DNA of 46,792 bases. Source: a virus. Of this stretch, positions 19,150 through 19,714 are shown piece after piece. Position numbers and translations under genes: made by a program. The notes beneath the pieces are model-generated. The model did no database searches and had not been told where the DNA came from. It worked only from the letters and a program-made list of their open reading frames with translations. Numbering within the stretch: position 1 is the first letter of the stretch; each line of letters starts with the position of its first letter. The DNA lies in IMG/VR virus record IMGVR_UViG_3300045988_109821, positions 1-46,792 of that record; one strand, 5' to 3'.

Positions 19150-19230
19150 AAAAAGTCCACTTATAGGTGGAAAAATACACAAAAAGTCCACTTATAGGTG
19201 GAAAAATACACAAAAAGTCCACTTATTGTG
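19150..19230. repeat. 2.6 tandem copies of a 31-bp repeat (AAAAAGTCCACTTATAGGTGGAAAAATACAC) with a CCAC-N6-GTGG dyad core.
   Basis: Period-31 identity read directly. Lies immediately upstream of the C1q-like gene. Confidence 0.8.
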
Positions 19231-19258
19231 TAAATTTTATAAGAAAGGAATGATAATA

Positions 19259-19714
19259 ATGATAGAAAGTGTAATTAATACACCTATAGCTTTGACATCT
19301 ACTTCAAATACTGTCACATTTACAAAAGATGACTATAGAAGTAGGTCTGCTAACTGTTGTGGGTGGCTTCAACACACAGAAGGTTCACCACTTTATAAAA
19401 TATTACAAGGTGGTACCTATGAATTAGACTTAAGTGCTGTGGTTACAAGTGCAACAGCAGGTATTGTTGCTTTAGGTCTTTATATTGATGGAATTTTAGT
19501 ACCTAATACTGTAAGTGCTGAAACTTTAGTAGCTGCAGGAGATTTAGCTAATATATCTTTCAATAAGAAGATAAGGGTATGTTGCAATGATAATTCCACA
19601 ATTACTATTGCATCTGTTCCAACTGTAAATGCAGGTGCAACAGGAACAACAGCTACGGCAACACAAATACCTATTATCACAAATGCTATATTTAGTATTA
19701 GTAAAAGAGCTTAA
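19259..19714 (+). CDS. C1q/TNF-like (BclA C-terminal-domain-like) beta-sandwich protein.
   Basis: Pattern GTYELDLSAVVTSATAGIVALGLYIDGILVP...ANISFNKKIRV resembles C1q-like domains. The start is ambiguous (ATG 19250 or 19259). Confidence 0.45.
   Translation: MIESVINTPIALTSTSNTVTFTKDDYRSRSANCCGWLQHTEGSPLYKILQGGTYELDLSAVVTSATAGIVALGLYIDGILVPNTVSAETLVAAGDLANISFNKKIRVCCNDNSTITIASVPTVNAGATGTTATATQIPIITNAIFSISKRA

Follow-up and report, generated by a model that had tools for sequence, protein, structure and literature searches.

The window analysed here is the whole 46,792-nucleotide stretch of the viral record IMGVR_UViG_3300045988_109821 (IMG/VR, positions 1 to 46,792), and the element in question is a 31-bp tandem array at 19150-19226, which follows the intrinsic terminator of gene 18212 and precedes the ribosome-binding site of gene 19259, a gene whose product is predicted to fold as a BclA/C1q-type jelly roll. 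We found that the array is a recent duplication private to one genome, located in a spacer that is modular, hypervariable and placed at a mosaic junction. The explanation that we rank first, with less than even confidence, is that a young slipped-strand duplication has taken place inside a bent, dyad-bearing control spacer of double-stranded DNA; a function of the same modules as RNA ranks second and a neutral scar third. The comparisons below cover about 150 loci from IMG/VR, metagenomes and Logan/ENA assemblies.

Tandem Repeats Finder places at 19150-19226 an array of period 31 with 2.5 copies, 100% matches and a score of 154, by far the top-scoring array of the window (family D12 of the repeat search). 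Its consensus unit, AAAAAGTCCACTTATAGGTGGAAAAATACAC, is exactly the unit given by the first-pass annotation, a reading of the letters alone that had described a 31-bp tandem repeat with a CCAC-N6-GTGG dyad. Both the repeat and the dyad are confirmed by Tandem Repeats Finder and by pattern counts, with 3 occurrences of CCAC-N6-GTGG in the window where 0.05 would be expected. Two details given there need correction. The copy number is 2.5 (77 bp) and not 2.6, with copy 1 at 19150-19180, copy 2 at 19181-19211 and a partial copy 3 at 19212-19226, and the array does not reach the start of the gene: its last base, 19226, is 32 nt ahead of the ATG at 19259, and TTGTGTA, the ribosome-binding site and the ATG come after it. 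Each full copy contains one dyad, GTCCACTTATAGGTGGA, at 19155-19171 and 19186-19202. As plus-strand RNA the first dyad (TCCACT-TATA-GGTGGA, 19156-19171) is predicted to form a 6-bp stem including one U.G pair, at -7.0 kcal/mol, and the second (19187-19202) has the same sequence 31 bp downstream. In addition to this 16-bp dyad, TCCACT-N4-GGTGGA, the unit holds an A5 tract and also TACACAA, the left half of a 26-bp palindrome, and a 15-nt direct repeat, AAAAAGTCCACTTAT, frames it.

The array is shorter than one sequencing read and is present base for base in a separately deposited ENA contig of 46,691 bp (L131); it is therefore not an assembly artefact. The earlier statement that this is not an array of clustered regularly interspaced short palindromic repeats (CRISPR) also holds, as the copies are contiguous and head to tail, with a period of 31 bp that is also the length of the unit, and the array contains no CRISPR-type spacers. 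The sole match to the Rfam family CRISPR-DR reaches 16.8 bits against a gathering score of 39 and falls outside the array, at 19239-19269, and Pfam and PHROG scans of the window proteins returned no Cas family.

The array was found only in the window and in the identical contig L131, and in no relative. Four loci in which the product of gene 19259 is 94-96% identical (L008 and L051-L053) have one dyad only, with 3 of its 17 positions changed; of the three changes in L008, two are in the loop and one turns the U.G pair into U-A, and the pairing is kept. Another locus with a 92% identical gene, L132, has no dyad. Along the alignment to L008, identity is 95% over 15719-17439, followed by an unmatched HNH gene that only the window has, then 86% up to 18868; the segment 18868-19180 cannot be aligned, and identity is again 93% from 19181 onwards. 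Position 19181 is the first base of copy 2, and the edge of the unalignable segment thus coincides with a copy boundary. The stretch 19035-19138 is 79% identical to L010.

Other tandem arrays occupy the same site in other phages. An unrelated 42-bp unit is found in 3.0 copies (87% matches) in L011 and L056, and a 42-bp unit in 2.3 copies (77% matches) in L009; in these arrays degeneration has affected the upstream copies, and preservation is best in the palindrome closest to the ribosome-binding site. The same intergenic region has received an HNH_3 gene in L040 and an extra open reading frame (ORF) of 217 amino acids in L049. The mosaic junction, the independent arrays and the gene insertions at one site support the suggestion, made in the first-pass annotation as a second possibility, that the array marks a recombination hotspot. 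Given the 15-nt direct repeat around the unit, a single slippage step from 1.5 to 2.5 copies would suffice to produce the array.

We also looked for the dyad away from this site. The dyad 17-mer has 7 matches in IMG/VR, each single and 17-19 nt long, and the two that we examined, one within coding sequence (L006) and one a lone intergenic hairpin (L007), are unrelated to the array. Within the window the sole copy outside the array, AACCACTTAAAGGTGGAA at 11409-11426 on the plus strand, matches the array core at 17 of 18 positions and corresponds to codons 5-10 (QPLKGG) of the gene for a 938-amino-acid virion protein. The L008 phage (L145) has this copy unchanged despite a different intergenic dyad, and the peptide is conserved in L146. 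This copy is probably not a second regulatory site, since it encodes the conserved QPLKGG and does not co-vary with the intergenic dyad.

The array is part of an accessory spacer that is AT-rich, confined to some lineages and assembled from palindromic modules. Among 88 distinct relatives, 22 have more than 60 nt from terminator to ATG; the 199 nt of the window is the greatest distance. Here the spacer reads, in order, module A, a short palindrome, A8, dyad, A5-TACACAA, dyad, A5-TACACAA, the 5' half of a dyad, TTGTGTA and the ribosome-binding site. Its upstream part (19068-19149), with a predicted fold of -19.5 kcal/mol (z -5.2), contains module A, an imperfect long palindrome at 19076-19152 that resembles L010, and the short palindrome ACAC-N6-GTGT at 19133-19146. 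At the downstream end lies a further palindrome, the B unit TACACAA-N12-TTGTGTA (19207-19232), in which the partial third repeat copy forms the spacer between the arms and the right arm, TTGTGTA, is at 19226-19232. Relatives combine these modules differently: the L132 spacer is a B unit alone, the L010 type is an upstream module A plus a B unit, and the L008 type is a short palindrome, one GC-rich dyad (TCCACT-CACA-AGTGGA) and a B unit.

The B unit is the core element that the spacers have in common; its length is kept while its AT-rich centre varies, and the half-site centres are about 21 bp apart. Its consensus is AAAA-TRCAYA-N13-15-TRTGYA-AAAWT (25-28 bp), and its right arm is 8-14 nt upstream of the GGA(G) core of the ribosome-binding site. 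It is also present in L008, L010, L132, L133, L147-L151, L025, L027 and L080, with compensatory variants of the arms. The arm pairs co-vary, as seen in TGCACA/TGTGCA, TACACAA/TTGTGTA (window), TGCATAA/TTATGCA (L151) and ACACATTA/TAATGTGT (L009, L011), and clean B units occur at this position only in 750 kb of fetched loci. A likeness of the TGCATAA/TTATGCA arms to Xer/dif sites was dropped, the 13-15-bp centre being incompatible with the 6-8-bp dif core.

The spacer of the window also has phased A-tracts, with a coherence of 0.90-0.95 at 10.5 bp, and ranks first for A-tract phasing among the window loci. When periods of 9-13 bp were scanned, the best A-tract period was 9.8-10.8 bp in all inserts with more than one tract, and the two repeat periods, 31 and 42 bp, are close to 3 and 4 turns of the helix. 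A second strongly phased locus, in the DNA polymerase gene region at 27140-27380, consists of 8 T-tracts with a coherence of 0.89 at 10.5 bp.

Just ahead of the terminator that precedes this spacer, the comparison revealed a putative three-way-junction RNA at 18989-19032 on the plus strand (P1 18989-18995/19026-19032, P2 18998-19009, P3 19011-19024). It begins at the stop codon of gene 18212, is kept at the same place in relatives (L009-L138) and is made up of a closing stem and two 4-5-bp hairpins with G-AWUA-C loops. In an alignment of 71 distinct sequences, pairing extends to 93.7% of cells, and both sides have changed in 10 of the 13 pairs. The observed covariation was reached by 0 of 500 shuffles, and slid controls gave 23-47% pairing. 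The third helix served to select the sequences, and thus only the first two helices are independent covariation evidence. No Rfam family reaches its gathering score anywhere in the window, and in 18850-19350 there are only chance-level matches (E of at least 0.45). The junction may be an attenuator or a protein-binding element, and this unannotated RNA is more noteworthy than the array.

The terminator itself, at 19038-19065 on the plus strand, has a 9-bp stem, a GAAG-type loop and a run of T6, and its position is conserved in 88 of 96 distinct relatives. In 62 of the 88 (about 70%) the stem is at most 37 nt before the ATG and the T-run goes straight into the ribosome-binding site; with the two abutting, the downstream gene of those 62 relatives must be transcribed by read-through. 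Several loci (L012 at ~2880-2910, L132, L137, L151, L031, L041 and L070) carry, between junction and terminator, three tandem repeats of about 10 nt with the motif (C)TGAACRG, for example ctgaacgggtctgaacggaactgaacag; they look like a multimeric RNA- or DNA-binding site and are absent from the window.

The constant length of the B unit, the 31- and 42-bp periods and the phased A-tracts are the features that lead us to read the spacer as DNA, and the phi29 p4 sites offer a precedent for such geometry. We propose that a slipped-strand (or unequal-crossover) event, most simply from 1.5 to 2.5 copies of one module, occurred in a spacer that would act as double-stranded DNA between the terminator of gene 18212 and the ribosome-binding site of gene 19259. 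This region would be intrinsically bent and offer dyad sites to a dimeric protein of phage or host, which could tune the transcription entering 19259-20632 either at a weak internal promoter or as a roadblock to read-through of the terminator. The duplication would only add a second dyad three helical turns upstream, not create an evolved multi-site operator, and is probably close to neutral.

Several observations weigh against this proposal. No sigma-70-type promoter reaching 9 of 12 matches is present in 19060-19258, and the only promoter register shared across lineages (TRCACA, a spacer of 18-20, YAAAWT) would start transcription inside the ribosome-binding site; an alternative register, WATAWT just before GTG, comes without a consistent -35 element and was rejected. 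Our searches found no binder for the spacer dyads, and the half-site patterns RCACAA..TTGTGY and CACWW-N11-15-WWGTG form no other cluster in the genome that would indicate a regulon, while TRCACAW is a common sense-strand word. The A-tracts flank the palindromes on the same strand, and the helix formed by the two dyads is far more stable on the plus strand; both would fit RNA hairpins in a read-through leader. Imperfect pairs, counted by eye, are mostly G.U on the plus strand (4 versus 2, not significant), and we dropped the count of G.U against A.C mismatches as a test of strand, the numbers being too small. Moreover, 2 of the 7 phased A-tracts are copies made by the duplication itself and the inserts of relatives are not independent samples. 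Lastly, the array is not conserved and therefore nothing shows selection on it.

Two other sites share words with the spacer palindromes. In the divergent region between the early (minus-strand) and late (plus-strand) blocks, at 214-300, there is a run of WTGTGT/AATGTG words (…aataatgtgtgtaactggttgtgtctgcatcttgtgtaataatgtgaa…) that resemble the right arm, and these are not enriched by 7-mer count. The sole near-consensus sigma-70 promoter of the region, TTTACA-17-TGcTATAAT at 20831-20859, follows a terminator and a tRNA, and its spacer carries the palindrome ACACAA-A-TTGTGC, ACACAAATTGTGC, with the same words as the palindrome arms. As a clue to the array this promoter is uninformative, being identical in L008 and absent from L009 and L011.

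A possible but doubtful second explanation is a role of the modules at the RNA level. Module A, the two dyads or the helix between them, and the B unit would then be hairpins in the read-through leader of gene 19259 that modulate mRNA processing, stability or ribosome access, for example as a site for a double-stranded RNase or as a 5' stabiliser, and the duplication would have made a new long helix. The neighbourhood is RNA-regulatory, with its covarying junction and terminator, and about 70% of the relatives have no room for a promoter. Folding predicts that dyad 1 pairs with dyad 2 in a 16-bp helix of -22.8 kcal/mol on the plus strand, against -14.8 kcal/mol on the minus strand, where C.A mismatches interrupt it. 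The preserved pairing of the dyad between the window and L008, the A-rich linkers of the spacer (45-48% A) and the fold of 19068-19275 (z -6.2) all point in the same direction. On the other hand, a hairpin with a purely structural role would not usually keep a constant length of 25-28 nt with loops of 10-15 nt, as the B unit does, and RNA biology offers no explanation for A-tract phasing at 10.5 nt or for periods of 31 and 42 nt. The modules match no Rfam family, and the lack of conservation of the array counts against a role in RNA as well.

We consider it unlikely that the array is nothing but a neutral scar of slippage or illegitimate recombination at a palindrome-rich mosaic junction, in a spacer that may itself be functionless. 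One genome alone has the array and its copies match perfectly, the unalignable segment ends where copy 2 starts, the framing 15-nt repeat is what slippage requires, upstream copies decay in the older arrays of L009 and L011, and most relatives manage without the spacer. Against this, the position of the B unit is fixed and its arms show compensatory changes in both human-gut and rumen clades, and the dyad is kept in the L008 lineage, indicating that at least some modules are under constraint.

The first-pass annotation had taken the array for a multimer binding site of a regulator and named the sigma-region-4-like protein of gene 16451-16708 as a candidate binder. The first part may hold: in its favour, the dyads are 31 bp (about 3 turns) apart and accompanied by phased A-tracts and palindromes of fixed geometry; against it, the array is private and has no usable promoter downstream, and the only dyad copy outside it is conserved coding sequence. 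The second part finds little credence with us, that is, an operator or activator-site array bound by the 16451 protein in the manner of the Ltr (RinA/ArpU/LtrA) late activators. Those activators bind short direct repeats of 7 nt located directly downstream of their own gene and upstream of terS (PMC3753634). The two dyads would lie on the same helix face, and the structural model of the 16451 product (predicted local distance difference test, pLDDT, 85) has its best matches among region 4 domains of extracytoplasmic function (ECF) sigma factors and KorA, with template modelling (TM) scores up to 0.82; it is plausibly a sigma-region-4-like helix-turn-helix protein. However, the fold E-values are 0.5-2 and no Pfam family matches at E <= 0.1. 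L008, with its single and different dyad, encodes the protein at 100% identity, and homologues of 71-81% identity occur in phages whose spacers have no TCCAC-type dyad (L147-L152). The location does not agree either: from the end of gene 16451 (16708) to the first base of the array (19150) there are 2.4 kb and three genes, one of them on the opposite strand, and the array is not immediately distal to the activator coding sequence. It is also not upstream of a terS promoter or near the terminase genes, whose fragments are at 2948-3706 and 4728-5306; it precedes the BclA/C1q-fold gene. Other candidate DNA binders are encoded at 42711-43040 (MazE/AbrB-like) and 43768-44181 (Spo0A_C-like).

It is very improbable that the dyads are intrinsic terminators of minus-strand (antisense) transcription. 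A consensus scan does flag both, as TCCACCTATAAGTGGA followed by CTTTTT or CTTTTTTTT, and the L008 version is a 6-bp stem followed by T6, but the window stem has a C.A mismatch on the minus strand that leaves 5 bp, the cross-helix is weaker there, B units with loops of 10-15 nt are poor terminators, and we found no strong minus-strand promoter and no gene downstream in need of insulation. Least probable of all are iterons of a replication origin or packaging site, which the phased palindromic repeats, A-tract curvature and AT richness recall, since the element is absent from most relatives that share the replication and packaging modules (62 of 88 distinct relatives are without the spacer), occupies a mid-operon position among the late genes, with 14 kb between it and the terminase genes, and shows no enrichment of DnaA-box-like words (TTWTNCACA, 14 against 9.6 expected).

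By itself the array, newly duplicated in a single uncultured gut phage, matters little. Its surroundings are of wider interest, being an intergenic control region that gains, loses and amplifies palindromic modules between terminator and ribosome-binding site in widespread phages of gut and rumen associated with Firmicutes, and one that has exposed an unannotated, strongly co-varying three-way-junction RNA ahead of the terminator. If the modules are protein sites, they would provide a way to study how the amount of a virion-surface protein of the BclA/C1q fold is set in these uncultured phages. More speculatively, and with rather low probability, the whole of 18989-19258 could be a modular, phage-specific expression switch for an exosporium-like (BclA/ExsF-fold) cassette, combining the junction RNA and terminator attenuator, an optional bent-DNA dyad module and a phage dimer that reads sites of phi29 p4 geometry. 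In such a switch the junction and terminator would work as a ligand- or protein-responsive attenuator, and the optional module would evolve by duplicating units in helical register, the array being the youngest example.

The phage itself is podovirus-like, with a genome of about 46.7 kb and a family A DNA polymerase. Positions 1-119 of the window equal 46674-46792, an exact direct terminal repeat of 119 bp; most likely the genome is 46,673 bp long and circular or circularly permuted, and the repeat is where its assembly overlaps. The plus strand carries, over 473-26162, the terminase fragments and the genes for portal, endolysin, major head protein and tail fibres, and the minus strand those for DNA polymerase, primase, Erf, SSB and a YqaJ-like recombinase. 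The relatives are mostly uncultured phages of human gut, pig gut and rumen, or contigs binned mostly as Clostridia, Bacilli or Erysipelotrichaceae. A megablast search for cultured-phage relatives gave no match. At the protein level gene 18212 matches mostly uncultured gut phages, two records with cultured hosts also match weakly, one from a Butyrivibrio phage (28% identity) and the other from a phage of Clostridium perfringens, and the product of gene 19259 had no match in the protein-level search for cultured-phage relatives. In bacterial data the gene is found only within metagenome-assembled bins, of Clostridia, Bacilli, Erysipelotrichaceae and, once, Muribaculaceae (Bacteroidota).

The genes on either side of the spacer are both on the plus strand. 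Gene 18212-18991 (PHROG 16490) encodes a transmembrane segment and a Cys-rich tail. Gene 19259-19714 starts at the ATG 19259-19261, behind the ribosome-binding site GAAAGGA at 19243-19249; the arrangement GAAAGGA(G)-N6-9-ATG is kept in all relatives compared, which makes the mechanically called ORF start, TTG at 19226, unlikely. An AlphaFold model of the 19259 product (pLDDT 77.5) is a jelly roll of the TNF/C1q type for which Foldseek finds BxpB/ExsFA, the BclA C-terminal domain, EDA and C1q jelly rolls (E ~1e-6, TM ~0.65), the closest being the Bacillus exosporium proteins BxpB/ExsFA and the C-terminal domain of BclA. The two predictions thus agree with the earlier label of a C1q-like gene. 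The 18212-19714 gene pair recalls the Bacillus exosporium in the window and in relatives, the first protein being transmembrane and coiled-coil with a Cys-rich, hypervariable C-terminus and the second a jelly roll of the BxpB/ExsFA/BclA fold. Further along, the protein of 19728-20264 has an Arg/Tyr-rich stretch, and ARAGORN reports a tRNA-Cys (GCA) at 20704-20780, between gene 20264 and the promoter at 20831. It is close to genes for several Cys-rich proteins, the products of 18212 and 19259 having CC motifs, and a tRNA-like sequence occurs at the same position in relatives; the Rfam scan at gathering threshold has no tRNA at 20704-20780.

The genome appears to have undergone several invasions by homing endonucleases. 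The large terminase is in pieces, 2948-3706 and 4728-5306, split by ORFs 2509-2919 and 3742-4419, which by DNA similarity (I1/I2) are paralogues of the HNH/NUMOD4 gene at 17476-18069 on the minus strand, itself absent from L008. A fourth HNH gene is at 37258-37836. Introns or inteins are possibly present in the terminase gene.

Among known systems, CRISPR arrays are alike in having short repeats that contain palindromes, whereas the copies here are head to tail, without spacers and only 2.5 in number, and no cas genes were seen in the window. Intercistronic stem-loops and sites for double-stranded RNases occur in phage operons, such as the RNase III sites of T7 and the 5' stabilisers of SP82. 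The spacer resembles these in that hairpins, here including a 16-bp helix, would separate cistrons on one polycistronic phage mRNA and come shortly before a ribosome-binding site, and differs in its helical-phase features, which have no RNA rationale, and in elements that are optional among close relatives. Origins of the lambda type have several dyad-containing iterons in helical phase, with A-tract bending and AT-rich flanks. Helical phase, A-tracts and AT-rich flanks are seen in the spacer as well, but with only two full copies, without conservation among relatives and unlinked to replication genes.

The Ltr family in phages of Gram-positive bacteria (RinA, ArpU, LtrA/Sigma70_r4, LtrB, LtrC) pairs a small sigma-region-4-like helix-turn-helix protein with repeats upstream of late genes (PMC3753634). 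Its repeats are of about 7 nt in 2-4 copies upstream of the terS promoter, while here a 31-bp dyad-containing unit lies far from gene 16451 and fronts the BclA/C1q-fold gene without a recognisable promoter. The p4 protein of the Bacillus phage phi29, which belongs to its early/late switch, is a dimer that binds AACTTTTT-15 bp-AAAATGTT and reads A-tracts indirectly (PMC1904284), with several such sites in tandem in bent DNA (PMC1904284, PMC3100819). The setting differs: p4 sites lie at -82 of a mapped promoter, whereas the spacer sites abut the ribosome-binding site, and the phage is not phi29-like, having a genome of 46.7 kb and a DNA polymerase of family A. No p4-family protein came up when most window ORFs of at least 70 amino acids were scanned against Pfam and PHROG, though a structural analogue may be present. 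The duplicated 16-bp dyad (TCCAC-N6-GTGGA) has a shorter geometry than the p4 site, and the B-unit arms differ from p4 arms in sequence. The B unit, by comparison, is an inverted repeat of the p4 type, TRCAYA-N13-15-TRTGYA with AAAA flanks, separated in the window by N12 between 7-nt arms or N14 between the 6-nt arms TACACA/TGTGTA. Together with the phased A-tracts, it shares with the p4 site the geometry of 6-8-bp arms 15 bp apart and flanked by A-tracts.

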